Of a stretch of DNA of 64,000 bases, positions 25,205 to 45,742 are shown in pieces (the stretch's first letter is position 1; each line of letters opens with the position of its first letter). Under the pieces are notes generated by a model. That model was not told the origin of the DNA. It saw nothing but the letters and a program-made list of their open reading frames with translations, and did not search any database. Made by a program: the position numbers and the translations under genes. The stretch comes from Actinomycetota bacterium (GTDB taxonomy: Bacteria; Actinomycetota; Actinomycetes; S36-B12): positions 33,987 through 97,986 of the forward strand of contig JAQCEO010000002.1 in assembly GCA_027729805.1 (NCBI GenBank), read 5' to 3'.

Positions 25205-25233
25205 TTGACAAATGCCAGAAGGGCGCCTAAATT
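25205..25233 (+). promoter_or_regulatory. Sigma-70-like promoter TTGACA-17 nt-TAAATT upstream of the first transketolase operon
   Basis: TTGACA at 25205-25210, 17-nt spacer, TAAATT at 25228-25233. It is followed by TTGTCAACAA (25249-25258), a copy of the recurring island motif. Confidence 0.4.
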
Positions 25234-25294
25234 CCAGATGACCGTATTTTGTCAACAATATAGAGAATGTCGGGAATTGGGCGGTGTTGACTTT

Positions 25295-26122
25295 GTGAGT
25301 TTTTCTGAGTTTGAGGCCGTGAGTCGAAGGGTCCGGCGACTTGTCGTGGATACTGTGTATGGCGCTGGTGCTGGGCATATTGGGGGCCCACTATCGGCCG
25401 TCGACATCCTCACCGTGCTCTATCACCACGAAATGCGAATCTCGGTGAGCGATCCCGAGTGGCCAGATCGCGATCGCTTCATCTTGTCCAAGGGGCACTC
25501 CAGCCCTGCCCTCTACTCGGTTCTTGCCTCGTGCGGGTTCATCCCGGAGGAGGAGTTGTGGACTTTCGACGAGGTCGGTAGCCGACTCCAGGCGCATCCG
25601 GACATGCACAAGACGCCAGGTGTGGATATGTCCACGGGCTCGCTGGGTCAAGGCTTATCGGCGGGCGCGGGAATGGCGCTAGCCGCCAAGTTGGCGTCCC
25701 AGCCCTTTCGCGTGTACGTCCTGCTTGGTGACGGTGAGTGCCAGGAGGGTCAGGTGTGGGAAGCCGCGATGTTCGCCCAGCGGTTCGCACTCGACAACCT
25801 GGTTGCCGTCGTGGACTGGAACGGTCTCCAGCAGGTCGGGTGGGATCTCAGCGATCAGCCTTCCCGGGAGGACACACTCCCCACGGCGGTTGAGAAGTGG
25901 CGTGCCTTCGGATGGCATACCGCCGTCGTTGATGGTCACGACATCGGGGCGCTAGTCAATGCCTTCGACGCTGCGCGGAAGGTCACGGGTCAGCCGTGTG
26001 TGATTCTGGCCACGACGACGAAGGGAAAGGGAATCTCATTCATGGAGAACGACAACGCCTGGCATTCCCGGATCATCACCGAAGATGACTATGCGGCGAT
26101 CTGCGCGGAGCTGGCGCCGTGA
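25295..26122 (+). CDS. Split transketolase, N-terminal (TPP/PP-domain) subunit, copy 1
   Basis: GAGHIGGPLS and GDGECQEGQVWEA TPP-binding motifs. In-frame GTG 25295 gives ~275 aa; the ORF-track start at 25205 coincides with the promoter-like hexamer. Confidence 0.85.
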   Translation: MSFSEFEAVSRRVRRLVVDTVYGAGAGHIGGPLSAVDILTVLYHHEMRISVSDPEWPDRDRFILSKGHSSPALYSVLASCGFIPEEELWTFDEVGSRLQAHPDMHKTPGVDMSTGSLGQGLSAGAGMALAAKLASQPFRVYVLLGDGECQEGQVWEAAMFAQRFALDNLVAVVDWNGLQQVGWDLSDQPSREDTLPTAVEKWRAFGWHTAVVDGHDIGALVNAFDAARKVTGQPCVILATTTKGKGISFMENDNAWHSRIITEDDYAAICAELAP

Positions 26123-27066
26123 ACGGCACCGTGCAGGCTGAAGCAACACGTGATGCCTTCGGGGCGGAATTGCTTGACTGCGCGAAGGCCGACCCTTCGA
26201 TCGTCGTGGTCGACGCTGACCTCGGCAATGCAATCGGCCTGGTCCAGTTCCGGTCGACATTTCCGGCTCGGTACATTCAAGTCGGTATCGCCGAGCAGAA
26301 CGCCGTAGGTGTTGCAGCTGGGCTGGCCGCCTGCGGCTTCCGCCCTGTGCTGACCTCCTTCGCTGCCTTCGTGGCATGCCGCTGCCTGGACCAGATCAGG
26401 GTTTCCGTCGCCCAAACTGGTCTGCCGGTTGTGCTGCTCGGCGGCCACTCGGGCCTCCTGGCGGGGCGACTCGGCAAGACCCACGTGACCATGGAGGATC
26501 TATCGATCCTGCGCTCCCTCCCTGGCCTCGCCTGTGTCGCACCAGCGGATGGCGTCGAGATGCGCAAGGCGTTGCGAGCCTGCCTCGCCTACCCCGGTCC
26601 TACCTACCTCCGGGCTACCCGGGATGCGACTCCAACCATTTTCACGTCTGACCACGAGTTCGCGATCGGCAGGGCGTACATGCTCCGGGAAGGGGCCGAC
26701 ATCTGCTTGCTGTCGAGCGGGACGATGACACCGCGAGCTGCGCAGGTCGCTACCCTCCTGTCTGATCTCGGGTATTCAACAGCCTTGGTACATGTGCCCA
26801 CCCTGAAGCCGCTGGATATCCAGACGGTTGCCACTGCCACTCGTGGCAAGCGGCTCGTAGTCACGTACGAGGACCATTCGATTCTGGGTGGCCTCGGGTC
26901 CGCAGTCGCTGAAGTCCTCTTCGAGGGGGATCGACCCCCTCTCCTTCGGATCGGTACGGAGGACACCTACATCGACTCGGGGAAGAATGATGACCTCTTG
27001 GAGTTCTATAGGTTGGAACCAGAAGTTGTGACCGGCAGGATAGTGAACGCACTGGAGACGCAATGA
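26119..27066 (+). CDS. Split transketolase, C-terminal (Pyr + C-domain) subunit, copy 1
   Basis: ATRDAFGAELL...VVVDADLGN...IQVGIAEQNAVGVAAGLA; GTGA overlap with the N subunit. Confidence 0.85.
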   Translation: MNGTVQAEATRDAFGAELLDCAKADPSIVVVDADLGNAIGLVQFRSTFPARYIQVGIAEQNAVGVAAGLAACGFRPVLTSFAAFVACRCLDQIRVSVAQTGLPVVLLGGHSGLLAGRLGKTHVTMEDLSILRSLPGLACVAPADGVEMRKALRACLAYPGPTYLRATRDATPTIFTSDHEFAIGRAYMLREGADICLLSSGTMTPRAAQVATLLSDLGYSTALVHVPTLKPLDIQTVATATRGKRLVVTYEDHSILGGLGSAVAEVLFEGDRPPLLRIGTEDTYIDSGKNDDLLEFYRLEPEVVTGRIVNALETQ

Positions 27067-28262
27067 ACGCACCAACTTCGCGTGCCATGACAGCGGACCG
27101 GGCCTACGACCCGCTTTCCGAGCAGTCACACCTCGACCCGTATCCCACGTATTCGTGGTTGCGTGAGCATGCGCCCGTCTACTACTGCGCGGCCCGCGAC
27201 GTGTGGGTGTTGTCCCGGTACGAGGACGTCCGCGCCGCACTGCGGGACTGGAACACGTTCACCAGTACGGGTGGTGTGGAACTCGCCGATTACGTCGGGT
27301 TCTTCGGTGCGGGCAACTGTCTCGAGATGGATCCACCCCGTCACGATGTATTACGCAAGGTGTTCACTACGCGGTTCAGCACCAAGGCGATCAAGACCTA
27401 CGAGTCGATGGTGCGCGCCACCACGGTCGAACTCCTTGATGGCATCGAGGGCGCTTCCGAGGTCGATCTCGCGAGCGTGCTGACCAACCGTTTGCCGGTG
27501 CTCACGATCTGCCGGCTGCTGGGTCTTCCCGAAGCTGATATGCCTTGGGCGGTCGAAGCATCGATCGACATGATGACCCGCCCTCCGGATGAAGTCGGAC
27601 CCTCAGCTGCTGCGCAACGACTCCGTGCGCAATTGGTGGAGTTGTTCCTGCGCGAGGTGGACACGCGGTTGTCGGGTGTCTGGAGCGATGATGTGCTCTC
27701 CGACATGGCCCACGCGATCCAGGACGGCACGATGAATCGAGACGAAGTCCAGGGGGCCACGCTGCTGTTGATTGCGGCGGGTATGGAGACCACGTCGAGC
27801 CTGATGGGCAATATCGTGTCCGCCGTGGCCTCGGGGCAGGTGGATCCGCAGGCGTTGCTCGATGACGCGGGGGACCTGCGCCCGCCGGCGATCGATGAGT
27901 TCCTGCGCTACGACTCACCCGTGCAGTGGCTGTGCCGGGTGGCGACCGCGGATGCCGAGGTGCGCGGTGTTCGCATCCCGGCCGGCGCGCGCGTGCTGAT
28001 GCTCTATGCCTCGGCGAACCGAGACCCCGAGGTCTTCACGCACCCCGATGTCATCAATCTGGATCGGGATGGTTCGCGTAACCTGTCCTTCGGTGAGGGA
28101 ATCCACTTCTGCCTCGGGATGCCGTTGGCGAAGCTCGAGACCCGGATCGGACTCGGTGAGTTATTTGCGCGGTATCCACGCATCATCGCCACCGATGAGC
28201 CGCGGCGTTATCCGTCGCACATCATCCGCGGATTCGATTCGATCCCGGTGCGTGTGGCATGA
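27063..28262 (+). CDS. Cytochrome P450
   Basis: Heme-thiolate motif FGEGIHFCLGMPLA, I-helix AAGMETTS, EFLR (ExxR); ATGA overlap with the transketolase C subunit. Confidence 0.9.
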   Translation: MNAPTSRAMTADRAYDPLSEQSHLDPYPTYSWLREHAPVYYCAARDVWVLSRYEDVRAALRDWNTFTSTGGVELADYVGFFGAGNCLEMDPPRHDVLRKVFTTRFSTKAIKTYESMVRATTVELLDGIEGASEVDLASVLTNRLPVLTICRLLGLPEADMPWAVEASIDMMTRPPDEVGPSAAAQRLRAQLVELFLREVDTRLSGVWSDDVLSDMAHAIQDGTMNRDEVQGATLLLIAAGMETTSSLMGNIVSAVASGQVDPQALLDDAGDLRPPAIDEFLRYDSPVQWLCRVATADAEVRGVRIPAGARVLMLYASANRDPEVFTHPDVINLDRDGSRNLSFGEGIHFCLGMPLAKLETRIGLGELFARYPRIIATDEPRRYPSHIIRGFDSIPVRVA

Positions 28263-28323
28263 GCAATCCACGATTCCGGGGAATCCACTTGCGGAGCAAT
28301 TAACAACAACCAAGGAGGAAGTT

Positions 28324-28863
28324 ATGGCGGGAGCCAAAGTAATTACCCTAGACCACGTCGCGGTCATGGTGTCGGATCTGGAGCGCTCTTTGCGCTTCTA
28401 CCACGATCTGCTCGGTTTGGACTTCGTCGCGTCGGAGGAACACGACGACCGTCCGAACGGCGGCCCGGTCTCGACCATGACGGCATTTCCTGTTGTGCAA
28501 ATACGCGAGTACCGACTCCGGCCTGCTGGTGGCGTCAATGGCCATGCCCGCATCGAGGGCCAAGGGCTCACCGTCGATCTCATCGAGTGGATCACACCAG
28601 AGAGCCCGGTGGGTAGATACCCAATCAACCAGGTGCCAAGCTCGCACATCTGCTTCGGCGTGGAGAGCGTGCCGGCCACGTACGAGATGCTGGTCGAGGC
28701 CGGCGTGGAAGTGGTTTCACCACCCGTGCGGTTCGACGGTGAGGGCGAGTGGCATGTGCTGTTCTTCTACGACCCGGACGGCAACCTGATCGAACTCAAC
28801 GAGATCGGCACCGGCACGCAGCATGAGCACAAGTCGCAGATTCACGAGTGGAGCCGATACTAG
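28324..28863 (+). CDS. VOC (glyoxalase/bleomycin-resistance/extradiol dioxygenase) family protein
   Basis: LDHVAVMVSDLERSLRFYHDLLGL...FFYDPDGNLIEL; ATG 28324 follows AAGGAGGAAG. The 5' part of the ORF-track call overlaps the P450 gene. Confidence 0.8.
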   Translation: MAGAKVITLDHVAVMVSDLERSLRFYHDLLGLDFVASEEHDDRPNGGPVSTMTAFPVVQIREYRLRPAGGVNGHARIEGQGLTVDLIEWITPESPVGRYPINQVPSSHICFGVESVPATYEMLVEAGVEVVSPPVRFDGEGEWHVLFFYDPDGNLIELNEIGTGTQHEHKSQIHEWSRY

Positions 28864-28868
28864 ACCTT

Positions 28869-29909
28869 ATGACGCTTTCATCGATCGGAATCGTGGGGAC
28901 GGGGGAGAACGCCCACGATCACGCCGCTGCGTGCCAAGTGATCCCGGGTGCCGAACTCGTGGCGATTTGCGATATCTCCGCGGATGCGCTGGCGCGATTC
29001 GGTGACGAGTTCGGCTGTCCGCACCGGTATGAGTCCCTTGATGCGATGCTGGGCGCGCACGAACTTGATGTCCTCGTCATCTCTACTTGGGGTCCCCACC
29101 ACGCTCCGCTAGCGCTCCAGGCCATGGACACCGGGCGGGTGCGGGCCCTGTTGGTGGAAAAACCGATGGCCATGGATGCCGCCGAGGCCGCCGCGATGGT
29201 CGCCCGCGCGCAGGCTACGGGAACGCTGCTGGTCGAGGGGTTCAAGTGGCGGTATGACCCCCAGCACCGTGCCGCATTCGATGCGCTGGCTGCGGGGCGG
29301 ATCGGTGCGGTGCGCTCGGTGCACGGGGCCTTCTCCGCCCCGCTCGCCGGCCGCATGGGGGAGGGCAACTGGCGCTTCGACCCCGCTCGGGGTGGGGGGT
29401 CGCTCTATGACACCGCCGGTTACCTGATCCATTTCGCCCGCGCCGCGATGGGTGGTGACCCGGTCGCCGCACTGGCGATCGCACCGGATTCGAGTGCGGA
29501 TGGCGCGGAATTGAGTGCGGCGATAATTTTGGAGTTCACTGAGGGTCGGGTGGCGTTGCTGCAGTCAAGTTACGCCCAAGCTTACCACCAGGCAGTGACG
29601 GTGATTGGGACGCAAGGGTGGATGCGCTACACGAGCCCGTTTGATTCCCGCAGCAGCCGTGATGCGGAGTTCGTCGCCACACCACCGCTGGCTGCTCGGA
29701 TCGATATCCACGGCAACGACTTCGACCACGAGGTCCTCGAGTTCCCGCCGTGCAACCAGTTCGTGGCCCAGTTGGAAGCCGTACTCGCGGCGGCACGGAC
29801 CCGCGGCCAAGTGCCGGCATCCGGTGCCTTCGCCGTGGGTAGCATGGCCACGCTCGATGCCCTGCGGGCATCTATACAAAGTGGTCGGAAGAAGGAGGTA
29901 CGCGTATGA
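28869..29909 (+). CDS. Gfo/Idh/MocA-family oxidoreductase
   Basis: N-terminal Rossmann IGIVGTGENAHDHAAA and the LVEKPMA motif. Confidence 0.8.
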   Translation: MTLSSIGIVGTGENAHDHAAACQVIPGAELVAICDISADALARFGDEFGCPHRYESLDAMLGAHELDVLVISTWGPHHAPLALQAMDTGRVRALLVEKPMAMDAAEAAAMVARAQATGTLLVEGFKWRYDPQHRAAFDALAAGRIGAVRSVHGAFSAPLAGRMGEGNWRFDPARGGGSLYDTAGYLIHFARAAMGGDPVAALAIAPDSSADGAELSAAIILEFTEGRVALLQSSYAQAYHQAVTVIGTQGWMRYTSPFDSRSSRDAEFVATPPLAARIDIHGNDFDHEVLEFPPCNQFVAQLEAVLAAARTRGQVPASGAFAVGSMATLDALRASIQSGRKKEVRV

Positions 29910-30589
29910 GTCCCGATGCCGAGATACGATTGAATAGCAAACAGCGTTCCTTGCGCGATCAACTGACCGATTCCCTGCGCGAGCGCATCATGTCCTCCGA
30001 CCTGTCGCGGGGCGAGCGCCTCGATCTGCCCCGGATGGCGCGCGACTACGAGGTCAGTCTGATCCCATTGCGCGAGGCACTCATCGTGCTTGAGTCCGAG
30101 GGTGTGGTCACCTCGCGTGCGCGGCGTGGGGTGTTTGTCTCCGAGTTGTCCGCAGAGGATCTTATTGAGATTTACCAGGTGCGCGAGGCGATTGAGGTGC
30201 AGGCGGTCGAGTTGCTGATCGCCTCCGGTGATGCCGCGGCGGACACCGCCCTGTCCAATGCGCTGCAGGAGTTGGCTGCGTGCTGGAAGCGCGGCGACCA
30301 CGACGCAGCCGTCCGTGTCGATGTGCAATTGCACTGCCTAATCTCGGTGATATCGGGCAATCTGCGCCTTGCGCAAATGGCTAAGATGATGGCCAACCAG
30401 ACGCTGCTCCACCTCATGCCGGTCGAGGAATCACAGGTCGCGCTGCGCCGGCGACCCGCAGACCACTTCCACACAGACATCGTGCGAGCGATCGTGCAGC
30501 GCGATGTCGAATCGGCGCGTCAGGCTGTTCGCGATCACTACTCATGGTCGCGCGCGCGGCTTTCCGATGCTGGACTCGGGGCTTGGTAG
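29906..30589 (+). CDS. GntR-family (FadR/FCD subfamily) transcriptional regulator
   Basis: wHTH LPRMARDYEVSLIPLREALIVLESEGVVTSRARRGVFV plus an alpha-helical FCD-like C-terminal domain; ATGA overlap with the upstream gene. Confidence 0.85.
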   Translation: MSPDAEIRLNSKQRSLRDQLTDSLRERIMSSDLSRGERLDLPRMARDYEVSLIPLREALIVLESEGVVTSRARRGVFVSELSAEDLIEIYQVREAIEVQAVELLIASGDAAADTALSNALQELAACWKRGDHDAAVRVDVQLHCLISVISGNLRLAQMAKMMANQTLLHLMPVEESQVALRRRPADHFHTDIVRAIVQRDVESARQAVRDHYSWSRARLSDAGLGAW

Positions 30590-30732
30590 CAAGCAGTAGT
30601 CTCCTATCTGGCGTTGGTCGAGTTACTCGGGGATCCCTTGTCTGGACCCGTGCGGCGTTGGCAGCGGTCATCTCGGCTCCACGGGTCATGGTGGCGCGGG
30701 GCGGCCGCGACGCAGACTGGTCTGGATCTCTG

Positions 30733-30761
30733 TTGACAATCTATTATTAAAGTATTACGGT
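30733..30761 (+). promoter_or_regulatory. Promoter-like TTGACA-17 nt-TACGGT in an AT-rich patch upstream of the fused E1 gene
   Basis: TGTTGACAAT at 30731-30740 followed by the unusually AT-rich CTATTATTAAAGTAT, then TACGGT at 30756-30761 (TANNNT-type -10). Confidence 0.4.
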
Positions 30762-30813: not shown

Positions 30814-30975
30814 ATGTTAAATCCTCGAGGAGGTACCGCCGTCACAACGGGCGGTGCCCGCGGGCTCGACGAGGGCTATGACAACTGGCGCCGGGGGCAG
30901 GAGATCAACGTCAACGGTCCGTTCCTTTGGATCAACACGGTCGCACCAGCCATGGTTCCCGAAGCGGTCACATGA
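30814..30975 (+). CDS. Candidate 53-codon small ORF translationally coupled (ATGA) to the E1 gene
   Basis: My translation: MLNPRGGTAVTTGGARGLDEGYDNWRRGQEINVNGPFLWINTVAPAMVPEAVT*. Its stop TGA (30973-30975) overlaps ATG 30972. By my count ~37 of 53 third positions are G/C. It is below the ORF-track size cut-off, I recognise no homolog, and the SD (GGGAA) is weak. Confidence 0.3.
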   Translation: MLNPRGGTAVTTGGARGLDEGYDNWRRGQEINVNGPFLWINTVAPAMVPEAVT

Positions 30976-33152
30976 GCATCGAAGCGGCATCATTATTTGC
31001 CTACCAAAACCTGCCGTGGCGGTCCTATCCGAACCTGAGTGCGGCCACTGCCTCACTTGACGGCCTGACTCCCAACGCTGCGGCCTTGATGCTGTACCAG
31101 TTGTTGTTGATTCGGGCTTTTGAGCAGTGGCTGGTGGACAACGAGACCTTGGTGCATGGCCCGTTGCATTCGAGTATCGGTCAGGAGGCGGTGGCGGTGG
31201 GGGCGATCGCCGCGCTGCAGCGCCAGGATCAGATTGCCTCCACGCACCGGGCCCACCATCATGTGTTGGCGCGTGTGGTTGCTAGTGCCGCGCATGATGC
31301 CGGGGGTTTCGCCCCCGCGAGTTCAGTTCCCACGCCGTCGCTGGTGTGTGAAGCGATCCTTAAGACGCTGGCTGAGATTCTCGGACTCCGGCAGGGGTTT
31401 GCCGGCGGTCGTGGTGGTTCTATGCACCTCGGGTGTATCGACGCCGGGGTACTGGGCACGAGTGCGATCGTCGGCGGCGGCATCCCGATGGCCACGGGGG
31501 CGGCTTTCGCGTTCGCCCAACGCGGCTCGGGGGGAGTGGCCCTCGCTTTCTTTGGGGATGGTGCCGCATCAATCGGTGCGTTGCATGAGGCCATGGCGAT
31601 GTCGCGGGTGATGTCTTTGCCGATGATCTTCCTGGTGGAGAATAACCTTTACTCGGTGGCCACCACGGTGGCCGAGACCGTCGGGTTCCCGGATATCGCA
31701 ATCCGAGCCGCGGGCCACGACATGCCGGGCATCATCGTGGACGGCATGGACCCGCTCGCGGTGCGCGCGGGGGTGGTGCAGGCGCGGGCGCACGCGGCTG
31801 CCGGTCACGGGCCGGTGCTGATTGAGGCGAAGACGTACCGCTATCTGCACCAATCTGGGCGCCTACCCGGGAGCGACTACCGCTACCGCACCAAGGAGGA
31901 GGAGAGCCAGTGGCTCGGGCGTGATCCGATCGATCATTTCCCGGCGACTCTTATTGCTGCTGGACTCGTTGATGCTGCGGGGTTGGCGACCATCCGTGCC
32001 CGAATCGAGTCTGATCTTGCGGTAGCGATTGAGACCGTCGTCGAAGTTGGTGCTGAGGGGCCCCGCATCCGCGAGGATGCCTGGCCCGATCCCAGCGACG
32101 CTGTCCGCGGGGTGCGGGCAATGGGCAGCGCGCCGGCTCAGGTCTTAGAGCCGGTGGCGGCCGGGGAGAGCGTGACCTATCAGCAGGCCATCTCGATGGT
32201 GCTGGAGCGGGCCATGCAGCGGGACCCGGAGGTGTTCGTGATCGGTGAGGAGGTTGGTCACCTGCGCGGTGGCGCGTATGGGACCACCCGGCATGTGTGC
32301 CGAAACTTCCCCGAGCGCGTGTTTAGTTCCCCGATCTCGGAGAACGGTTTTAGTGGGCTGGCCCTTGGGTCGGCGCTGATGGGGATGCGACCGGTTGTGG
32401 AGTTGATGTTCCCCGATTTCGCCCTTGAGGCCGCCGATCAATTGTTCAACCACGTGCCGAAGGTCCGGCACATGTTCGGTGGCGACGTGGACGTACCTCT
32501 CCTCGTGCGTACCCGCACGGCGCAGGGCCGGGGCTTTGGCCCGCAACATAGCTGCGACCCCGCCGCGTTGTTCGCGCTCTTCCCAGGGTGGCGGATCATC
32601 GCCCCCTCGACCCCGGCGGACTACATAGGACTGTTCAACTCCGCGATCACCGGCACCGACCCGGTCTTGATAATCGAGCACTACCGACTTTGGACCATGG
32701 AAGGGCCGATCCCAGATCTAGATGCCCAGATTCCGCTGGGCAAGGGACGTATCGTGCGCCCGGGACGCGACCTGACTGTACTCACCTGGTCGCACCCGGT
32801 GCACCGAGTCAATGCGATCGCGCAGGACCTTGCACTGGAGGGAATCGAGGCGGAGGTGATCGACCTACGCACCATCGATCCCCTCGGCATCGACTGGGAA
32901 CTGGTCAGCGAGTCGGTGCGGCGCACCGGAGCAGTTGCCATCGTTGAAGACGCAACCGCCTCCCACGCGCTCGGACCCCGCATCTCACAGGTCATCCACG
33001 AACGCCACTTCGCGGACCTCCGCGTCCCCGTGCAGGTGATAACAGGACTCGACGTCCCCACCCCCGTCTCCCGCGTACTCGAGGAGTATGTACTGCTCTC
33101 TGATACAGCAATTGCTGGGGCGCTTCGGAATCTGGGGATTTGTGGTGACTGA
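30972..33152 (+). CDS. Fused 2-oxoacid dehydrogenase E1 component (alpha and beta subunits in one polypeptide), TPP-dependent
   Basis: Alpha part: HSSIGQEAVAVGA, FFGDGAASIGALHEAMAMS...LVENNLYS. Beta part: FVIGEEVG..GGAYGTT...SPISENGFSGLALGSALMGMRPVVELMF. About 726 aa from ATG 30972. Confidence 0.85.
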   Translation: MSIEAASLFAYQNLPWRSYPNLSAATASLDGLTPNAAALMLYQLLLIRAFEQWLVDNETLVHGPLHSSIGQEAVAVGAIAALQRQDQIASTHRAHHHVLARVVASAAHDAGGFAPASSVPTPSLVCEAILKTLAEILGLRQGFAGGRGGSMHLGCIDAGVLGTSAIVGGGIPMATGAAFAFAQRGSGGVALAFFGDGAASIGALHEAMAMSRVMSLPMIFLVENNLYSVATTVAETVGFPDIAIRAAGHDMPGIIVDGMDPLAVRAGVVQARAHAAAGHGPVLIEAKTYRYLHQSGRLPGSDYRYRTKEEESQWLGRDPIDHFPATLIAAGLVDAAGLATIRARIESDLAVAIETVVEVGAEGPRIREDAWPDPSDAVRGVRAMGSAPAQVLEPVAAGESVTYQQAISMVLERAMQRDPEVFVIGEEVGHLRGGAYGTTRHVCRNFPERVFSSPISENGFSGLALGSALMGMRPVVELMFPDFALEAADQLFNHVPKVRHMFGGDVDVPLLVRTRTAQGRGFGPQHSCDPAALFALFPGWRIIAPSTPADYIGLFNSAITGTDPVLIIEHYRLWTMEGPIPDLDAQIPLGKGRIVRPGRDLTVLTWSHPVHRVNAIAQDLALEGIEAEVIDLRTIDPLGIDWELVSESVRRTGAVAIVEDATASHALGPRISQVIHERHFADLRVPVQVITGLDVPTPVSRVLEEYVLLSDTAIAGALRNLGICGD

Positions 33153-33798: not shown

Positions 33799-33810
33799 AT
33801 AATCACCGCC

Positions 33811-34854: not shown

Positions 34855-34866
34855 TCACGGGCTGGG

Positions 34867-37364: not shown

Positions 37365-37376
37365 GCCGTAATTCTC

Positions 37377-38294: not shown

Positions 38295-38330
38295 CGCGCT
38301 CCTTCCTGGGTACGGGCAGTTTCCTGGAAA

Positions 38331-38347
38331 TTGTTGATCGTCAACAA
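38331..38347. promoter_or_regulatory. Inverted repeat TTGTTGA-TCG-TCAACAA in the divergent amidohydrolase/VOC intergenic region (candidate GntR-type operator)
   Basis: 7-bp perfect arms with a 3-nt spacer, read directly. It lies 37 nt upstream of the minus-strand start (38294) and 47 nt upstream of ATG 38394. Confidence 0.45.
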
Positions 38348-38393
38348 TCGCTGGACTAGCCTAGGGGCTCCCCAAGTTGAAAGGAGACTGTTT

Positions 38394-38840
38394 ATGCAGG
38401 TTCGAGTACTCAATCACATTGCCGTCACGGTCACCGACACCCAGCGGTCCTTGGACTTCTATGTCGGGAAGTTGGGCCTGGTGCAGGTAGAGCAGCATCA
38501 ACTCCCGAAGTCTTCCATCGATACGGTGTTCGGACTCACGGGTGCCTCTGGTACATCGACCCGCCTCCAGGTGCCCGGCCAACCCGACATCCTCATCGAC
38601 ATCATGGAGATCTTGGGGGCGGAAGCAGGGACCGTGGTGCAGCCGTTGGGATCGATCGGTTCCACCCACATGGCATTCACCGTGGACAACCTCGACGAGG
38701 CGGTAGCCGAACTGAAGGCCAAGGGGGTTTCCTTCATCTCCGAGCCGGTGACCTTCCACCTGACCGAAGGGTCGGTGACCGTGTGCTTCATGCACGATCC
38801 GGATGGCAACTACGTCGAACTCGAAGAGGTACACGCATAG
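38394..38840 (+). CDS. VOC (glyoxalase/dioxygenase) family protein, copy 2
   Basis: LNHIAVTVTDTQRSLDFYVGKLGL...CFMHDPDGNYVELEE; ATG 38394 is preceded by AAGGAG (38381-38386). The 609-nt 5' extension in the ORF track is antisense to the amidohydrolase gene. Confidence 0.8.
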   Translation: MQVRVLNHIAVTVTDTQRSLDFYVGKLGLVQVEQHQLPKSSIDTVFGLTGASGTSTRLQVPGQPDILIDIMEILGAEAGTVVQPLGSIGSTHMAFTVDNLDEAVAELKAKGVSFISEPVTFHLTEGSVTVCFMHDPDGNYVELEEVHA

Positions 38841-38883
38841 GAATCCCTGCTGGTTAAAGGGATGTTGTCAGGGATGGTGAGTT

Positions 38884-39918
38884 ATGTTGCGCTGGGGCTT
38901 GTTGAGCACCGCCCGGATCAATGATCGCATCATCGACGCGGTGGGCCGCTCCGATCGGTCGACGCTGGTGGCGGTGGGCTCGCGTGCTGCCGAGCGTGCG
39001 AAGTCCTATGCGGCTGCACGTGGGATTCCAATGGCCTTCGGAAGTTACGAGGAACTCATCGGCTCCGCCGAAATCGATGCGATCTACCTTTCCTTGCCCA
39101 ACCACCTGCACGCGCAGTGGTCGATCGCTGCACTCGAGGCGGGCAAGCACGTGCTCTGTGAGAAGCCGCTGGCGTTGACCGTGGCCGAGGTCGACCGTAT
39201 GACCGAGGCTGCACAGCGCGCCGGCCGGGTGCTGCAGGAGGCTTCCGCGCCGCGGTTCCACCCGCAGACCGCGGATATCGCATCGATCATTGCCTCCGGC
39301 AAACTTGGTCGCATCCTGCTGTGTCAAAGCGCCTTCGAGTTCACCTTGCCGGCAACGAAGGACATCCGCCTCGATCCGGCAATCGGCGGAGGAGCGCTGT
39401 GGGATTTGGGCTGTTACCCGGTCACGTTCTTTCAGGCGGTGCTGGGCGAGAACCCCGAGGTGGTCTACGGACAAGCATTTATTGGCCCGTCAGGAGTTGA
39501 TCTCGCCTTCGCCGGGACGATGGGCTACCGCTCCGGGGCGAGCGTGCAGTTCACCGCGAGCATGACCACGCCCATTGCTCGCAGTGCGCGCATCGTAGGA
39601 GAGCGCGGTTCGCTCGAGCTCGATCAGCCGTGGTTAACCAATATCGGTGGTCAGACATCGGTTCGACAGTGGTCGATGCGCGCGTCGTCGGGGTCGGGCA
39701 CATTCGGCGATGATCCTGACCAACTCGAACTCACTAAGTGGGACTACGGTCCCAGCGACGTCTACCTCGATGAAGTGCGTGGCTTCGAGGAGATAGTCCT
39801 GATGGGTGCGCCGTCGCCCTATCCGCCCGCGGATAGCAGAATCAACACCGAGGTCATGACTAGGCTGCACGAGTCGATCCGGACGGGTGGTCCGGTGCGG
39901 ATAGGGATGGGTTCATGA
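38884..39918 (+). CDS. Gfo/Idh/MocA-family oxidoreductase
   Basis: LRWGLLSTARINDRII Rossmann N-terminus; VLCEKPLA motif. Confidence 0.8.
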   Translation: MLRWGLLSTARINDRIIDAVGRSDRSTLVAVGSRAAERAKSYAAARGIPMAFGSYEELIGSAEIDAIYLSLPNHLHAQWSIAALEAGKHVLCEKPLALTVAEVDRMTEAAQRAGRVLQEASAPRFHPQTADIASIIASGKLGRILLCQSAFEFTLPATKDIRLDPAIGGGALWDLGCYPVTFFQAVLGENPEVVYGQAFIGPSGVDLAFAGTMGYRSGASVQFTASMTTPIARSARIVGERGSLELDQPWLTNIGGQTSVRQWSMRASSGSGTFGDDPDQLELTKWDYGPSDVYLDEVRGFEEIVLMGAPSPYPPADSRINTEVMTRLHESIRTGGPVRIGMGS

Positions 39919-41087
39919 GTGAAAAGCGCACCCTCGGCCACGGGATCATCGGTGCCGGGTGGATGGGACACGTACATGCCCGTGCCACCGCACGGTTGGC
40001 CCACCACTACCCGGATCTCCCAGCGCGCACCACGCTCGTGGCGGTTGCGGACACCCTGCCGAGCCACCTTGAGACCTTCGTTGATCAGCACGGACCGATC
40101 GAGACCACTTTGGACTGGCGCGCGGTGATCGAGGATCCGCGGGTCAGCGTGGTGAGCGTGACCGCGCCCAATGCCGTGCACGCTGAAATCGGTGAAGCGG
40201 TGGCACGCGCCGGTAAGCACCTGTGGATCGAGAAGCCGGTCGGACTGAATGCGGCCGATTGCGCTCGGGTGGCCACGGCGGTTCGCGAGGCCGGGGTGCA
40301 GGCGGCTGTGGGTTTTAACTACCGCAACTTCCCGCCCGTCGAGCACGCCCAGCACCTGATCAGATCCGGTGCCATCGGGACTCCAACACATGCCACGGTG
40401 CGCACGCTCGCGGACTACGCGGCCGATCCGGTCGGCACTTTATCTTGGCGATACACCATCGCGCAGGGGGGTCATGGCATCCTCGCCGACCTCGGTTCGC
40501 ACGGTTTCGACCTGATCCGCATGCTGCTCGGTGACATCGACGAGTTGGTCGCGGACACCGCAACCTTTATCAGCAAGCGGCCCATCGCCAAGCCCGGTGC
40601 GAGCCACTTCGCCACGGCGGACCTCAACGATCCAGACCTCGAGTTCGGCGCGGTGGAGAACGAGGACTACATCTGTGCGCTGCTGCGCATGGCTAATGGT
40701 GCTCGCGTGACCTACGAGGCCGGGCGCTCGTCCATCGGGGATCAGTGCAACTACGGATTCCACATCCATGGCACCGAGGGTGCGTTGAGTTGGGACTTCC
40801 GTCGCTCGGATGAACTGCTGCTCAGCGTCGGCGGCCCCTACCAGGGGCGCCCCACCCAGGTGGTGTTCGGCGAACCGGGAATTGGTGAGTACCAGCGGTT
40901 CCAGCCCGGTGCGGGTGTGGCGATCGGTTATGACGACTCCAAGGTGATCGAACTGGCCCGCCTACTCGAATCGATTGACGCGGGCGCGCCGGTGGGGGCG
41001 ACGATCGAGGACGCGCTGCGGGCTGCGCTCGCGAACGAGGCTGTGCTCGCATCGTTGGCGTCCGGTCACTGGGAGCCGGTGGCATGA
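39915..41087 (+). CDS. Gfo/Idh/MocA-family oxidoreductase
   Basis: HGIIGAGWMGHVHARA; LWIEKPVG motif; ATGA overlap with the previous gene. Confidence 0.8.
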   Translation: MSEKRTLGHGIIGAGWMGHVHARATARLAHHYPDLPARTTLVAVADTLPSHLETFVDQHGPIETTLDWRAVIEDPRVSVVSVTAPNAVHAEIGEAVARAGKHLWIEKPVGLNAADCARVATAVREAGVQAAVGFNYRNFPPVEHAQHLIRSGAIGTPTHATVRTLADYAADPVGTLSWRYTIAQGGHGILADLGSHGFDLIRMLLGDIDELVADTATFISKRPIAKPGASHFATADLNDPDLEFGAVENEDYICALLRMANGARVTYEAGRSSIGDQCNYGFHIHGTEGALSWDFRRSDELLLSVGGPYQGRPTQVVFGEPGIGEYQRFQPGAGVAIGYDDSKVIELARLLESIDAGAPVGATIEDALRAALANEAVLASLASGHWEPVA

Positions 41088-41980
41088 GTGATCTGGCGCT
41101 ACTACCTGCCGGACTCGGTGCGGTAAACACACCTGTGCCGGTGTCGGTGTATTCCGAGGACGGCGAGGTCGATGCTGGAGCACTTGCTGAGGCGACCTTC
41201 TTCGTGCCGATCTATATGGGGCCGCCGACGAACCTCGCACTGATGGAATGCATGCCACAACTTCGCGTCTGCCAAATGTTGACCGCCGGATTCGACAACG
41301 CGTTATCGCATCTACCCGCAGGGGTAATTTTATGTAATGCGGCGGGTGTGCACGATGCGAGCACCGCGGAACTGGCCCTCGGCTTGATCATCGCCAACCT
41401 GCGCGGACTCGACGACGCGGCTCGCGATATGCCGCAAGGAGTCTGGCGACATCGCCGACTGCCCGCATTGGCGGACAAGGTGGTTCTGGTCATCGGTGCT
41501 GGTGGCGTGGGCCAGGCGATCCGTCAGCGGCTCGAGCCTTTCGAGGTCGAGGTGATCATGATGGGCCGGACCGCACGTGCTGGGGTGCGGGGGATGGCGG
41601 AACTAGACGCGATCTTGCCCACGGTGGATGTGGTGATCCTCGCGGTCCCATTGGCCGCCACCACCACGGGTATGGTCGATGCGCACTTCCTGGCCGGCAT
41701 GAAAGATGGGGCTCTGCTGGTTAACGTCGCGCGCGGGCAGGTGGTGCAGACAGATGCACTGCTGGCAGAGCTCACCCGGGGGCGCCTGCGGGCATCCCTT
41801 GATGTGACCGACCCCGAGCCGCTGCCTTCAGACCACCGGCTGTGGTCGGCGCCCGGGTTGCTGATCAGCCCGCATGTCGGGGGCAATTCATCTGCGTTCC
41901 TGCCGCGGGCTCGCCGCCTAGTCCGTGAGCAACTCGAGCGGCTGGCCGTGGGTCATGAACTCGTCAATCGGGTTGCCTGA
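41084..41980 (+). CDS. D-isomer-specific 2-hydroxyacid dehydrogenase family protein (island copy, paralog of 12581-13477)
   Basis: VIGAGGVGQAIRQRL; long identical runs with the core copy (LCNAAGVHDASTAEL, LDVTDPEPLP); the same 298-aa length. Confidence 0.8.
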   Translation: MSDLALLPAGLGAVNTPVPVSVYSEDGEVDAGALAEATFFVPIYMGPPTNLALMECMPQLRVCQMLTAGFDNALSHLPAGVILCNAAGVHDASTAELALGLIIANLRGLDDAARDMPQGVWRHRRLPALADKVVLVIGAGGVGQAIRQRLEPFEVEVIMMGRTARAGVRGMAELDAILPTVDVVILAVPLAATTTGMVDAHFLAGMKDGALLVNVARGQVVQTDALLAELTRGRLRASLDVTDPEPLPSDHRLWSAPGLLISPHVGGNSSAFLPRARRLVREQLERLAVGHELVNRVA

Positions 41981-42022
41981 GGTGGACCCCAGTGCACCTT
42001 TTGCCAACTGCCAACAACTGGC

Positions 42023-42997
42023 ATGCTGATGAGTAAAATGGACATCGTGACCACCGGCAAAGAGGCGAGGGTTGTCACCATGCCATTCGCTGATGCGCTC
42101 GTCTCTTTGGGTCAATCGCGATCAGACGTTGTAGTGCTGAGCGCCGACCTGAGCAACTACACCGACCTAATTCCGTTCCGCGACGCCTTCCCAGATCGAT
42201 TCTTCCAGGTGGGCATGGCGGAACAGAATATGATGGGGATCGCAGGTGGCCTCGCCCGCTCGGGCCTCTTGCCGATCGCTGTCACTTACGGGGTGTTCGC
42301 CACCCGACGAGCCTACGATCAGGTAGCCATGGCTTTGGGCACTGGCACGGTCAAGGCCATCATCGTCGCCTTTCTACCAGGCATCACCACGCCGTTTCGC
42401 GCCACGCACCAAGCAACTGACGATCTTGCGCTGATGCGGGCAATCCCTGGCATGACGGTTATCGACCCAGCCGACTCGACGGAGCTGCGAGCAGCCCTTC
42501 ATGCCGCAGCGGCGAATCCAGGAACGGTCTACCTGCGGGGACTAAGGGGTCTGGTCGAGGAGCGTTTTGATCCCGAGGGCTTCATCTTCGCAATCGGCGC
42601 TGCGCGTCTGGTACGCGACGGACCTGACGCCGCGATCGTAGGGACGGGTCTTGGCACGGCTTGGGCCCTAGATGCCAGTGAAATTCTTGCCGCCCGCGGC
42701 ATCTCGGCGAGCCTGCTGCACGTGCCAACCCTGAAGCCCCTTGATCGCGAAGCCATCGCGGCGCTGGCGGCGCGATTCGCGGTCGTTCATGTTGTCGAAA
42801 ACCACTCGGTGGTAGGCGGCCTAGCTAGTGCTGTTGCCGAGGTGATAGCGGGAATCGGCGCACCAACTCGCGTGAACCCGATAGGTGTGCCAGACCAGTG
42901 GGCGCCGGCCGGTTCACTTGACTACATCAGATCTGAGATCAATTTGTCAGCGGTTGGGATCGCGGACCGCGTGTTGGCGACTTGGACTGGTCCGTGA
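42023..42997 (+). CDS. Split transketolase, C-terminal (Pyr + C-domain) subunit, copy 2
   Basis: FADALVSLG...VVLSADLSN...FQVGMAEQNMMGIAGGLA; the start could also be 42029 or 42038. Confidence 0.85.
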   Translation: MLMSKMDIVTTGKEARVVTMPFADALVSLGQSRSDVVVLSADLSNYTDLIPFRDAFPDRFFQVGMAEQNMMGIAGGLARSGLLPIAVTYGVFATRRAYDQVAMALGTGTVKAIIVAFLPGITTPFRATHQATDDLALMRAIPGMTVIDPADSTELRAALHAAAANPGTVYLRGLRGLVEERFDPEGFIFAIGAARLVRDGPDAAIVGTGLGTAWALDASEILAARGISASLLHVPTLKPLDREAIAALAARFAVVHVVENHSVVGGLASAVAEVIAGIGAPTRVNPIGVPDQWAPAGSLDYIRSEINLSAVGIADRVLATWTGP

Positions 42998-43794
42998 TCT
43001 CTGACAAGGAGCTCGCTGACCGCGCGCAGTCCATCCGTCGTCGATGCATAGCCATGTGCCGCGGACGCGGGCAAGGCTATGTGGGCCAAGGATTGGCGCT
43101 CGCAGACCTAATGGCGGCGTTGTACTTCGATGAGATGCGGCGGACGTCGGCCGGTGACCTGCATGACCGACTCATCTTGTCGACCGGACACAGTGCTATC
43201 GCGCTATACGCGGCACTTGGTGAGCTCGGTGAATTCAGTGCTGACGAGTTGGCCACCTACGGGATGGATGGTTCGCGTATCGAGGAGAGCCCGTTGGCCG
43301 GACTCCCGGGATTCCTAGTTACCGGCGGTTCACTCGGTCAGGGGCTATCGCAAGCTGTTGGCTTTGCGTTAGCCGACCGTTTAAAGGGTTCGGATGCCCG
43401 GACTTTCTGCCTGATCAGCGACGGAGAACTTCAGGAGGGACAGGTTTGGGAGGCGGCGATGTCAGCCGGTCACTACAGGCTCGGATCCCTAGTAGTGCTT
43501 ATTGACGACAACGGGATGCAGGCGGACGGGGATACTGCGCAGGTGATGACAGTACAACCGATCGCGGGGAAGTTCACCGCCTTCGGCTTCAGCGCGAAAA
43601 ATGTGGACGCGAACGATCTGAGTGCGCTTCGGGCTGCATTAGTTAGCACGCGCGAGCCCAGCGACCGCCCGCATGCCCTAGTTTGTCGGACGATCCCGGG
43701 TAAGGGAGCACCGACGCTGGAGGCCTACACAAAAGTGCATTATGTGCGCGCCGCGGACGAGGTCTGGCAGCGCGCGATGAGTGAGATCCGATGA
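42982..43794 (+). CDS. Split transketolase, N-terminal (TPP/PP-domain) subunit, copy 2
   Basis: GQGYVGQGLALADL and SDGELQEGQVWEA TPP motifs. GTG 42994, overlapping the upstream TGA as GTGA, is an equally good start. Confidence 0.85.
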   Translation: MDWSVISDKELADRAQSIRRRCIAMCRGRGQGYVGQGLALADLMAALYFDEMRRTSAGDLHDRLILSTGHSAIALYAALGELGEFSADELATYGMDGSRIEESPLAGLPGFLVTGGSLGQGLSQAVGFALADRLKGSDARTFCLISDGELQEGQVWEAAMSAGHYRLGSLVVLIDDNGMQADGDTAQVMTVQPIAGKFTAFGFSAKNVDANDLSALRAALVSTREPSDRPHALVCRTIPGKGAPTLEAYTKVHYVRAADEVWQRAMSEIR

Positions 43795-44996
43795 TTGACG
43801 TTATCACCGCGATCTCAACAATTCGTTGGAGCGAGCAGCCCAACTGTCTGTGGGTTGAAGTGGAGACCGAGGCGGGACTGGTTGGGCTCGGCGAGACTTA
43901 CTACAACGCGGGCGCAACGGAGTCCGTTGTTCACGACATGGCTGCTCCACTCCTGCTCGGCGCCGATCCCGAGGCCAGGACCTTGCACTGGCGAAATCTT
44001 TTTGCCTGCGCCAACTTCTACGGGTACGCGGGCGCCGAGATGCGCGCGTTCAGCGCCCTAGACATTGCCTTATGGGATATCGCCGGGCGGATACTAGATC
44101 GCCCGATCCATGCGCTGCTTGGGGGCGCGGTGCACGCGGGTGTGCCGATCTACGCCACGTGCGCGGATGCTGGCGGGTACCTAGATCAACAGCGGTCAAT
44201 GACGGATCCAGGTGGCCTCGCGATGGAGTTGCTCGCATCGGGGATCACCGCGATGAAGGTGTGGCCATTTGATCAGTTCGCACCTCAAATCGCTTTCGAA
44301 ACTACGACCGGTCCCGCAGGTTGGTCCGCTATGGGCCCGCCGGGCAGTTACTTATCGAGCACCGATCTCGGTAAGGGCCTTTCCGTGGTGCAACAGATAC
44401 GAGATGCCGTCGGAGACAGCGTCGAGATCATCATTGAGGGCCATTCGCGCTGGGACCTAAACTGTGCGCTGCGAATCCTGCGCGCTCTAGAGCCATACGA
44501 CATCTTGTGGGTCGAAGACATCATGCAACCCGATAGCGTGGGCGATCTGAGGCGACTGGCCCAAGAGACGCGAGTCCCACAGGCGGTCAGCGAGCGACTC
44601 TTCACTCGATATCGCTACCGTGATGTGCTTGAGGCGCAGGCGGCCAACGTCATCATGCTCGACGTGGCGTGGACGGGTGGGATTTCAGAGGCATCGCGAA
44701 TCAGCGACCTTGCCGACACTTTCCATCTTCCCGTCGCTCCACACGACTGCACCGGTCCGGTCACCGCCCTCGCGAATCTCCACTTGTGCGCCGCCAAGAC
44801 CAACATCATGACCACCGAGGTGGTCCGCGGGTTCGTCGACGGCTACTACCTTGATGTTCTTGATACGCGACTGCCGATCAATGGTGGTACGGCCAGCGTT
44901 CCTGCGGGTCCAGGCCTAGGCGCGGCCCTTCGGGATGACTTCCGCGGTCGCCCCGGGGTGTCGATTCGCAGAAGTGATATTGGGCGGCGTACGTGA
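43791..44996 (+). CDS. Enolase-superfamily acid-sugar dehydratase (mandelate racemase/galactonate dehydratase-like)
   Basis: VEVETEAGLVGLGET...ALDIALWDIAGRILDRPIHALLGG...; metal-ligand region IIEGHSRWD...LWVEDI; 401 aa. Confidence 0.8.
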   Translation: MIDVITAISTIRWSEQPNCLWVEVETEAGLVGLGETYYNAGATESVVHDMAAPLLLGADPEARTLHWRNLFACANFYGYAGAEMRAFSALDIALWDIAGRILDRPIHALLGGAVHAGVPIYATCADAGGYLDQQRSMTDPGGLAMELLASGITAMKVWPFDQFAPQIAFETTTGPAGWSAMGPPGSYLSSTDLGKGLSVVQQIRDAVGDSVEIIIEGHSRWDLNCALRILRALEPYDILWVEDIMQPDSVGDLRRLAQETRVPQAVSERLFTRYRYRDVLEAQAANVIMLDVAWTGGISEASRISDLADTFHLPVAPHDCTGPVTALANLHLCAAKTNIMTTEVVRGFVDGYYLDVLDTRLPINGGTASVPAGPGLGAALRDDFRGRPGVSIRRSDIGRRT

Positions 44997-45742
44997 CGCG
45001 GCTGCATGGACTATCGGTGGTAGTGACCGGAGCCGCGGGTGCCATCGGTCAAGAGACCGCGCGTCACCTACTTAAGGCGGGTGCTTCTCGCCTCCTTCTC
45101 ACCGACCTGCCCAGGTCTGGCGTCGACGCGGTTGCTGAGTCGCTGCGCGAGGGACACTTTGAGATTGCGTCCGTGGAAATCGATGTCGCGGACTCGGCCG
45201 CGTTCGTGGATGTCCTAGCGGCACATCAGACCTTCCTCGGCTCGATCGATGTCCTAGTCAATGTTGCGGGCTTCTGGCAGATCATCGACTTCGTCGACAG
45301 TGATGCTGACCAATGGGAGCTGATGATCCGCGCTAATCTCCTAACTGCAATAAGTACCTGTCACAGTGTGCTTCCCCAAATGCTGGCTCAGGGTCGCGGC
45401 TCGATCGTGAACTTCGCCTCCACCGCCGGCGAGTACGGATCGATCCGACCGTCCGCCGCCTACGCGGCTGCCAAAGGTGGTGTCATCGCGTTTACGAAGT
45501 CGCTTGCCCGGGAGGTTTCGCCCCGCGGTGTTCGCGTGAACGCGATCAGTCCAGGACCCATAGACACCCCGGCACTGCAAGCAGCCTCCGATGAGGCGCG
45601 CGCGGGTGCGGCTGCGCGGACGCTCGTGGGTCGCCTCGGCCTGCCCGCGGATATCGCGAGCGGGGTGGTGTTCCTCGCGAGCGATGAGTCGTCTTTCATG
45701 ACGGGAGCGGTGCTTGCCGTCAACGGGGGCAGCCTGCTGTGA
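44993..45742 (+). CDS. Short-chain dehydrogenase/reductase (classical SDR)
   Basis: VVVTGAAGAIGQETA, NFASTAG, catalytic YAAAKGG; GTGA overlap with the dehydratase gene. Confidence 0.85.
   Translation: MTRLHGLSVVVTGAAGAIGQETARHLLKAGASRLLLTDLPRSGVDAVAESLREGHFEIASVEIDVADSAAFVDVLAAHQTFLGSIDVLVNVAGFWQIIDFVDSDADQWELMIRANLLTAISTCHSVLPQMLAQGRGSIVNFASTAGEYGSIRPSAAYAAAKGGVIAFTKSLAREVSPRGVRVNAISPGPIDTPALQAASDEARAGAAARTLVGRLGLPADIASGVVFLASDESSFMTGAVLAVNGGSLL

Follow-up and report, generated by a model that had tools for sequence, protein, structure and literature searches.

Does a dense 20-kb group of genes, in which three thiamine pyrophosphate (TPP)-dependent enzymes lie side by side with a P450, encode a single undescribed pathway? 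The question is raised by positions 25205 to 45742 of a 64,000-nucleotide stretch of an Actinomycetota genome (contig JAQCEO010000002.1; the whole stretch is called the window below), for which an initial annotation had proposed one system combining these enzymes. This proposal did not hold, as each part of the region was found apart from the others in other genomes. We consider it reasonably likely that the region is a composite catabolic island, placed between a mycofactocin locus and a tRNA-Gly gene and made of three independently inherited modules, M1 (25205-30589), M2 (30927-41980) and M3 (42023-45742).

The region and its modules in other genomes

The listing of open reading frames (ORFs) and Pfam scans gave 20 intact genes across the region, and every ORF was strongly matched in Pfam. 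All families announced by the initial annotation were recovered: Transketolase_N with Transket_pyr/Transketolase_C (twice), p450, Glyoxalase/VOC (twice), GFO_IDH_MocA, GntR with FCD (twice), a fused E1_dh, Transket_pyr and Transketolase_C protein, APH, SGL/SMP-30, DMFA2_C, Amidohydro_2, 2-Hacid_dh_C, MR_MLE and adh_short. Only the count of Gfo/Idh/MocA genes had to be lowered, from four to three (28848-29909, 38884-39918 and 39915-41087), which brings the gene number from 21 to 20. The order is tktN1, tktC1, P450, VOC1, Gfo1 and GntR1, then E1, GntR2 and APH, followed on the minus strand by the genes for an Amidohydrolase_2 (AH2), the DMFA2_C protein (DMFA-like) and SMP-30, and finally by VOC2, Gfo2, Gfo3, a 2-hydroxyacid dehydrogenase (2HADH), tktC2, tktN2, an MR_MLE protein (MR, for mandelate racemase) and a short-chain dehydrogenase (SDR). 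Gene spacing bears out the four tightly coupled transcription units described earlier: within units, genes overlap by 4-16 bases or are at most 73 bases apart, and the units meet at a GntR1-E1 gap of 337-382 bp, a convergent APH/SMP-30 junction of 12 bp and a divergent AH2/VOC2 junction of 99 bp. A scan for consensus promoters and terminators found sites no commoner than in shuffled sequence, so that the unit boundaries are those given by spacing.

About 170 related loci (numbered L below) were compared, using as seeds the DMFA-like gene (185,579 species genomes), the P450 and tktC2 (metagenomes), and each fetched locus was scored by tblastn of all window proteins. Unlinking of the genes in other genomes had been set beforehand as the observation that would speak against a single system, and it is largely what was found. 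M1 is known from four lineages, in two of which it occurs without the other modules: in L087 it is solitary amid housekeeping genes, and in L174 it is solitary and adjoins a CUT1 sugar ABC transporter, with no GntR seen beside it. The P450-seeded contexts define the module as tktN, tktC, P450, VOC and Gfo, usually with GntR, a unit present in L084, L087 and L174; VOC1 is 72-75% identical in L084 and L087, where GntR1 is kept as the last gene. P450 orthologues of at least 61% identity always stand behind tktN-tktC. Contexts of P450 homologues at or below 55% identity were unrelated, with no link to M1, so that the M1 linkage is limited to P450s of at least ~61% identity. A 252-aa gene called before tktN in L087 was rejected as spurious, being an antisense artefact of the VOC gene.

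The DMFA-seeded scan returned about 9 orthologues (63-98% identity) among 109 relatives. About 9 loci share E1, (GntR2), APH, SMP-30, DMFA, AH2 and VOC2, with or without Gfo2, Gfo3 and 2HADH, and this set, M2, is confined to one freshwater actinobacterial lineage. In L009 and L012, M2 ends at ilvBNC, and both M1 and M3 are absent.

At least 15 loci have M3 but no M2 gene, mostly with a GntR belonging to M3, which is widespread in soil and lake metagenomes. The tktC2 family counts more than 25 metagenome loci (56-95% identity); in the 18 of at least 6 kb, tktC, tktN, SDR and GntR/FCD were each scored in 14-15 cases (15 for GntR) and MR in 12, and M2 genes in none. These loci keep the C-then-N gene order with MR and SDR, in two arrangements, and the SDR accompanies tktC, tktN and MR. 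An Actinomycetales metagenome-assembled genome (MAG) carries tktC, tktN, MR, SDR and GntR amid housekeeping genes, and Cohnella soli has an MR orthologue (60% identity) together with GH36, GntR, two SDRs, a tkt2-type split transketolase, a CUT1 transporter and a weakly matching GH42-like gene. Other genes met repeatedly near M3 are those of an FAH hydrolase, a sugar-binding protein and a second MR. The M2-M3 fusion of the window is repeated only in L004 and L090, from the same or a sister species. In the window, M3 lies 42 bp behind the last M2 gene and has no regulator of its own, which means that M2 and M3 are probably co-expressed here; M3 has lost its own regulator in this species.

The contexts met elsewhere, with sugar ABC transporters, glycoside hydrolases (GH36/GH42), FAH hydrolases and GntR/LacI regulators, point to carbohydrate or sugar-acid catabolism, and agree with the initial annotation in favouring catabolism over assembly. 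It had also recognised no known pathway, and indeed no gene reaches the NCBIfam equivalog cut-off of a named pathway enzyme.

A single pathway acting on an unusual branched, deoxy or substituted sugar, with all 20 genes taking part and the TPP enzymes, the P450 and the VOC proteins performing successive steps, is in our opinion unlikely. The dense packing into four coupled units would fit with it, as would the transcriptional fusion of M3 to M2 in the window, L004 and L090, and the neighbourhood of M1 and M2 in two lineages despite an inversion. Yet in other genomes every module is found on its own and with a GntR of its own, M2 is present where M1 and M3 are lacking, and GntR1 and GntR2 share only 37% identity, a sign of separate signals. 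For M1 taken by itself, one may also think of a steroid- or terpenoid-like compound, hydroxylated by the P450 before ketol side-chain cleavage, since the steroid-17,20-desmolase DesAB is a split transketolase that cleaves a C-C bond of a specialised, non-sugar ketol outside the pentose-phosphate pathway (PMC13639069). Steroid and terpenoid metabolism typically involves P450s, and the PDB relatives of the one in M1 include CYP125, CYP124 and vitamin D hydroxylases. Yet the substrate class of DesAB is probably other than that of M1: a CUT1 sugar ABC transporter stands beside M1 in L174 and a TIM-barrel sugar-isomerase-like gene in L084, the regulator is of GntR/FCD type, no other recognisable steroid-catabolic gene was seen nearby, and tkt1, the split transketolase of M1, retains the phosphate-binding Arg/His/Arg and all catalytic His of sugar-phosphate transketolases. 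A steroid-type role for M1 is therefore very unlikely.

P450, epimerase-like VOC, kinase, transketolase and dehydrogenases occur in some cyclitol pathways, and the region could be read as a natural-product biosynthetic cluster, for instance for a cyclitol or aminocyclitol. This is the least probable of the explanations considered. The region genes include no polyketide synthase, nonribosomal peptide synthetase or glycosyltransferase, as initially noted, and no cyclase, aminotransferase or exporter; they do include three lactonase or hydrolase genes and GntR/FCD repressors, and relatives adjoin glycoside hydrolases and uptake transporters.

Several points weigh against the composite island, which we nevertheless prefer. 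M1 adjoins M2 in two differently arranged genomes, that of the window and that of contig CAZQRR010000002, and this could mean a functional link rather than co-location on an island. Besides the window, only one contig, that of L007, has M1 near M2; there M1 is ~7.6 kb from M2 in opposite orientation, the two being separated by genes for an SDR, for an Opp-type ABC transporter and for a TIM-barrel protein. No module has a transporter in the window, which holds a truncated permease only. The lipoyl-domain protein, small amidohydrolase and Gfo/OxRdtase_C protein that precede E1 in relatives are missing, so that M2 may be partly reduced here. Every chemical step proposed below derives from family membership, and the predicted dimethylformamidase (DMFase)-like role is weak, with one Fe ligand (Y440) unaligned and ~300 DMFase residues absent. 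Finally, the compared loci are mostly MAGs and metagenome contigs, several of them with obviously wrong taxonomic labels. MAG records at L004, L006, L007, L009 and L012 are labelled Bifidobacterium breve, Rubricoccaceae or Rubrivirga, whereas their genes share 73-96% identity with contigs of freshwater Actinomycetota; these MAGs are probably mis-binned or mislabelled.

Genes of the three modules

M1, all on the plus strand, opens with the two subunits of tkt1. The N-terminal, TPP-binding subunit tktN1 (25205-26122; Transketolase_N, 2e-51) probably starts 30-80 bases downstream of 25205, and the C-terminal subunit tktC1 (26119-27066; Transket_pyr and Transketolase_C) matches the Carboxydothermus split transketolase 6YAJ at 3e-64. 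Residues were mapped by motif via 6YAJ, and their numbers are those of E. coli transketolase. Out of the canonical set H26, H66, H100, H261, R358, H461, D469, H473 and R520, tkt1 misses only D469: the H26, H66, H100 and H261 equivalents are retained in tktN1, those of R358, H461 and R520 in tktC1, where GEDG has become GRLG. The acceptor-binding Asp469 is thus replaced by Leu and the preceding Glu by Arg, a change found also in the tkt1 orthologues.

Behind tkt1 comes a CYP107-like P450 (27063-28262; Pfam p450), whose best PDB matches are EryF, YjiB and Vdh (~1e-53). It was correctly described as lacking partners, as neither a ferredoxin nor a ferredoxin reductase was found across the 64-kb window. 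VOC1 (28324-28863, 179 aa; Glyoxalase, 2.5e-18), a VOC/glyoxalase-fold protein, starts at ATG 28324, preceded by a AAGGAGGA ribosome-binding site. Gfo1 (28848-29909), a Gfo/Idh/MocA oxidoreductase by Pfam, is under the NCBIfam cut-offs for IolG and xylose dehydrogenase, and the regulator GntR1 (29906-30589; GntR and FCD) closes the module.

M2 begins on the plus strand with the fused E1 alpha/beta TPP enzyme (30972-33152; E1_dh, Transket_pyr and Transketolase_C). Its ORF opens at 30927, but 30972 is the probable start of translation; the resulting 726 aa are also the length of a 94%-identical relative. E1 alpha and beta subunits from the PDB match it at 1e-36 to 1e-56, and orthologues are 65-94% identical. 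As stated initially, it has no E2 or E3 in the 64-kb window; these partners could be encoded elsewhere in the genome. The GntR/FCD regulator GntR2 (33145-33798; ORF opening at 33088) was assigned by Pfam and corresponds to a 217-aa gene call in L001. Next to it, an APH-fold small-molecule kinase (33811-34854; Pfam APH, 5e-9) has an intact catalytic loop HGDFSPKN (HGDxxxxN) and no match in PDB or NCBIfam. Its family is small, with 1,477 cluster representatives (E at most 1e-3, among 1.84 billion), one of which exceeds 50% identity. Longer relatives (P0375, P0414, P0435, P0461, P0493) are fused to PfkB, enolase, D-2-hydroxyacid dehydrogenase or FAH domains, fusions that suggest a small hydroxy acid or sugar for the substrate and a place at the pathway exit. 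A single-sequence AlphaFold model of the kinase had a pLDDT of 37 and was unusable.

Three hydrolase-type genes of M2 lie on the minus strand. The SMP-30/gluconolactonase-fold gene (34867-35754; SGL, 1.5e-57) adjoins that of the DMFA-like protein (35751-37364; DMFA2_C, 2e-60), a short form of 537 aa. This protein alone gave no PDB match; a profile of its family, 38 sequences, matched the N-acetyl-(R)-beta-phenylalanine acylase 8HUY (6e-26) and the DMFase 6LVB (1e-23). Its Y156, H278 and E280, invariant in the 38 homologues, line up with Y399, H519 and E521 of DMFase, positions reported as Fe ligands or as otherwise essential (PMC7686228); of the 2-Tyr-1-Glu iron site (Y399, Y440, E521), two of three ligands have counterparts, as has the essential His (H519). 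DMFase Y440 found no aligned counterpart, the stretch being poorly aligned. Distant DMFA homologues (below 45% identity, 71 loci) were set aside: their neighbours form a conserved housekeeping synteny, read as a UvrD/PcrA-type helicase, guaA and sucD, and are for this reason uninformative on function. AH2 (37377-38294; Amidohydrolase_2, 1.5e-39) is of the COG3618 lactonase type. It scores 118.5 bits with the L-fucono-1,5-lactonase model NF052480, whose cut-off is 400, and its closest solved structure is PDB 4DLF (3e-23), which we take to be the L-fucono-1,5-lactonase of Burkholderia.

The last unit, on the plus strand, starts with VOC2 (38394-38840, 148 aa), a VOC/glyoxalase-fold protein by Pfam, 83-98% identical in M2 loci and 66% beside E1 in L172. 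Two Gfo/Idh/MocA oxidoreductases follow. Gfo2 (38884-39918; Pfam) is kept in L004, L008, L009, L011, L012 and L090, and Gfo3 (39915-41087) falls in the levoglucosan / L-glucose / scyllo-inositol dehydrogenase subfamily, matching NF052479 over its full length at 250 bits, versus a cut-off of 650, and PDB 6A3F (1.5e-58) and 5YA8 (1e-53). M2 ends with a D-2-hydroxyacid dehydrogenase (41084-41980; 2-Hacid_dh_C), 72% identical in L009 and L012, where this copy directly adjoins ilvBNC. A second 2-hydroxyacid dehydrogenase gene of the window, between gatB and ilvD (12581-13477), is 60% identical to the copy in M2.

M3 continues the same unit. The C-terminal subunit of the second split transketolase-like enzyme, tktC2 (42023-42997; Pfam), is encoded first, and the N-terminal subunit tktN2 (42982-43794; Transketolase_N) second. 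The R358, H461 and D469 equivalents are lost from tktC2, and tktN2 has Y in place of H26 and S in place of H100; the whole tkt2 family, including the Cohnella enzyme, is without H26, H100, R358, H461 and D469. Binding of a sugar phosphate in the canonical manner is therefore unlikely, which agrees with the fact that M3 has no kinase. Next is the enolase-superfamily (MR/MLE) acid-sugar dehydratase-like protein MR (43791-44996; Pfam), ~60% identical across phyla. Galactonate dehydratase is its best NCBIfam match, with 191 bits versus a cut-off of 311, all others being below cut-off as well, and the nearest PDB entries (2POD, 4DX3 and 3DIP) bear generic family names only. The SDR (44993-45742; adh_short) ends the region.

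Outside the window, E1 has varied company. In L005 and L007, its operon adds an ADC-family gene, another VOC, an SDR and a free-standing lipoyl-domain protein of 81 aa, and M2 abuts mftR and mftF together with genes for a GMC oxidoreductase and for the mycofactocin SDR orthologue. The lipoyl-domain protein, with an EADKA motif, heads the E1 operon at L007 20308-21000 (= L084 1-166) and is absent from the window; by analogy with this relative, there are hints that the orphan E1 might reductively acylate a carrier. Upstream of E1, L009 and L012 have genes for a small amidohydrolase, a Gfo/OxRdtase_C protein and an SDR, and beyond these for a TIM-barrel protein and an MFS transporter. The neighbours of an E1 relative in L172 are LacI, Gfo, VOC, SDR, TIM-barrel proteins, an HpcH aldolase and a large three-domain TPP enzyme; by our own comparison, this TPP enzyme resembles IolD in size and architecture. 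A search of the window for remnants of such genes next to E1 or M1 in relatives (lipoyl protein, small amidohydrolase, Gfo/OxRdtase_C, ADC, GMC, TIM barrel, Opp-type binding protein, TPP enzyme and HpcH) found none. Downstream of M1 in L084 (13567-21188) are an MFS transporter, an SDR, a large three-domain TPP enzyme (~620 aa) similar to that of L172, an HpcH aldolase, a GntR, a 2HADH and a second HpcH. With this set and the L172 neighbours, the island holds more interchangeable sugar-acid modules than are seen in the window.

Known systems and a possible chemistry

Two known routes had been said to echo in the region, and each is represented in part. The D-apiose cluster with AplK, AptA and AptB (E. 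coli SE15 ECSF_RS02670-02715) is named in PMC13001218. Common to both is a small catabolic operon in which a split transketolase is accompanied by SDRs and a kinase, and AptB, like tktC2, is without the canonical R358 and H461. AptA is 41% identical to tktN1 and 32% to tktN2, and AptB 35% to tktC1 and 32% to tktC2; tkt1 and tkt2 are themselves 35-39% identical, the same range as AptA/AptB versus the pairs of the window. While a kinase and a split transketolase are thus present, AptA/AptB orthologues are not, and the kinase is of APH fold whereas AplK is of the FGGY family. The E. coli cluster differs further in lacking P450, MR, Gfo and lactonase, and in having a ribose-type ABC transporter and a sugar-binding transcriptional regulator instead of GntR. 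We take this regulator to be of SorC type.

The other echo is that of the non-phosphorylative L-fucose and L-rhamnose routes. M2 and M3 together hold a dehydrogenase, a COG3618-type lactonase, an MR-type dehydratase and an SDR, and FAH hydrolases stand beside M3 in some loci elsewhere. In the window, however, there is neither an FAH hydrolase nor an aldolase (Pfam found no FAA_hydrolase domain among the 20 genes), a remodelled TPP enzyme being present instead; the dehydrogenases are of Gfo type, and no equivalog cut-off is reached.

For individual enzymes, other comparisons can be made. In marine Bacteroidetes, the oxidative demethylation of 6-O-methyl-D-galactose by a P450, coupled to formaldehyde detoxification (PMC6292453, PMC9400963), shows that a P450 can belong to a locus of carbohydrate catabolism. 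The partners there, ferredoxin and ferredoxin reductase, are reported from the same cluster (PMC9400963), whereas M1 is without redox partners, and the formaldehyde route is that of ribulose monophosphate, not transketolase. The DMFA-like protein shares with DMFase and N-acetyl-(R)-beta-phenylalanine acylase (6LVB, 8HUY) the catalytic core and its Y...H-x-E-Y motif, but has 537 aa versus ~775, and its context is sugar-related, not one of solvent or amino acid. No 15-kDa DMFase small subunit was recognised beside its gene, flanked by AH2 and SMP-30. E1 has the complete E1 alpha and beta domains of 2-oxoacid and acetoin dehydrogenases, here in one chain, and differs from these systems in having no E2/E3 in the window, relatives having only the free-standing lipoyl-domain protein. 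Literature searches returned nothing on the combination of transketolase, mandelate racemase, GntR and SDR, on split transketolase in catabolism or on apulose transketolase, and nothing useful on dimethylformamidase with acylase.

Taking the families at face value, a chemistry can be proposed for each module of the composite island. In M2, the two Gfo dehydrogenases, one of levoglucosan / L-glucose dehydrogenase type, would oxidise a sugar, cyclitol or modified sugar, and ring opening of the lactone so formed would fall to the COG3618-type and SMP-30 lactonase-fold enzymes. An amide or acyl group would be removed or opened by the DMFase/acylase-like metal hydrolase. From a 2-hydroxy acid, the 2-hydroxyacid dehydrogenase would make the 2-oxo acid that the fused E1 would then decarboxylate or cleave with TPP. 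Phosphorylation of a small hydroxy-acid or sugar product by the APH-fold kinase would feed central metabolism. In M3, the MR-type enzyme would dehydrate a sugar acid to a 2-keto-3-deoxy acid, and the SDR would carry out an oxidation or reduction of the latter. C-C cleavage of a non-phosphorylated intermediate would be the task of the remodelled transketolase-like enzyme, in the place that known non-phosphorylative routes give to an aldolase or FAH hydrolase. M2 and M3 probably act in series in this species. M1 would be a separate unit for a different, imported carbohydrate-like compound, with hydroxylation or O-demethylation by the P450, oxidation or isomerisation by Gfo1 and VOC1, and handling of a phosphorylated ketose by the nearly canonical split transketolase.

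A further possibility, which we hold for doubtful, is that the orphan E1 and both remodelled split transketolases represent new C-C lyases, dependent on TPP and serving carbohydrate catabolism. M3 would then be an undescribed and widespread sugar-acid branch, from Actinomycetota to Bacillota, Verrucomicrobiota and Planctomycetota, where a transketolase-like enzyme devoid of phosphate-binding residues would cleave a non-phosphorylated keto-deoxy acid. M1 would in this case join sugar O-demethylation by the P450 to a transketolase that accepts formaldehyde in the manner of a dihydroxyacetone synthase; in this transketolase, the acceptor-binding Asp is replaced by Leu, with the donor and phosphate residues retained.

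Flanks of the region and meaning of the modules

The mycofactocin locus (16270-24095) is directly left of the region, outside the 20 genes. The set is full: mftF and mftR on the minus strand, mftA, mftB, mftC, mftD and mftE, and two coupled SDRs, both above their NCBIfam cut-offs. mftA is within ORF 18305-18538, its product ending in ...IDGMCGVY (GVY end), and no mftG was found in the locus. M2 adjoins a mycofactocin locus in three lineages (window, L005 and L007). The mycofactocin SDR orthologue of L005 and L007 is divergent from AH2-DMFA-SMP-30.

Between the mycofactocin SDR and M1, debris occupies 24335-25156. It comprises a 5'-truncated ABC permease gene on the minus strand (24581-25156), whose BPD_transp_2 match covers only profile positions 121-267 of 269, and, on the plus strand, an ORF (24335-24460) whose translation, read by eye with no tool match, looks like the C-terminal end of a transposase. 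A past rearrangement and the loss of a transporter are suggested by these remains. At the right edge is a tRNA-Gly(TCC) gene on the minus strand (45849-45920; ARAGORN, Rfam). Within 45849-47106, it and a tRNA-Pro(TGG) gene on the plus strand flank an FTR1 iron permease gene, between the region and tig-clpP-clpX. Base composition did not single out a horizontally acquired island, as the G+C content is 61-65% in the region versus 58-65% nearby; its edges are nonetheless marked by the tRNA gene and the transposase debris. The rest of the window is housekeeping, with electron transfer flavoprotein genes, a class-V aminotransferase (iscS-like), mnmA, ligA, gatAB and ilvD on one side, and tig, clpP1P2, clpX, valS, folC, mreBC and PBP2 on the other. 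Exact window proteins were found only on lake metagenome contigs, and the nearest species-level genomes are MAGs of freshwater Actinomycetota / "Candidatus Nanopelagicales".

We conclude that M1, M2 and M3 are three uncharacterised modules of sugar or sugar-acid breakdown, none of which matches a named pathway. The combination of three TPP enzymes plus a P450 arises from adjacent modules, not from a single pathway. Through M2, a rare kinase family and a DMFase/acylase-like hydrolase are linked, along with oxidoreductases of sugar type, to the neighbourhood of mycofactocin. The most worthwhile targets are M3, with its remodelled transketolase, and M1, whose pairing of P450 and transketolase is unusual and is found in abundant freshwater actinobacteria. 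M3 is the most useful lead, being conserved at ~60% identity across phyla, and it is directly testable because it is present in cultured Cohnella and Paenibacillus. If the chemistry proposed here is true, these modules would bring new TPP-dependent C-C cleavage steps to the sugar and sugar-acid pathways of bacteria.

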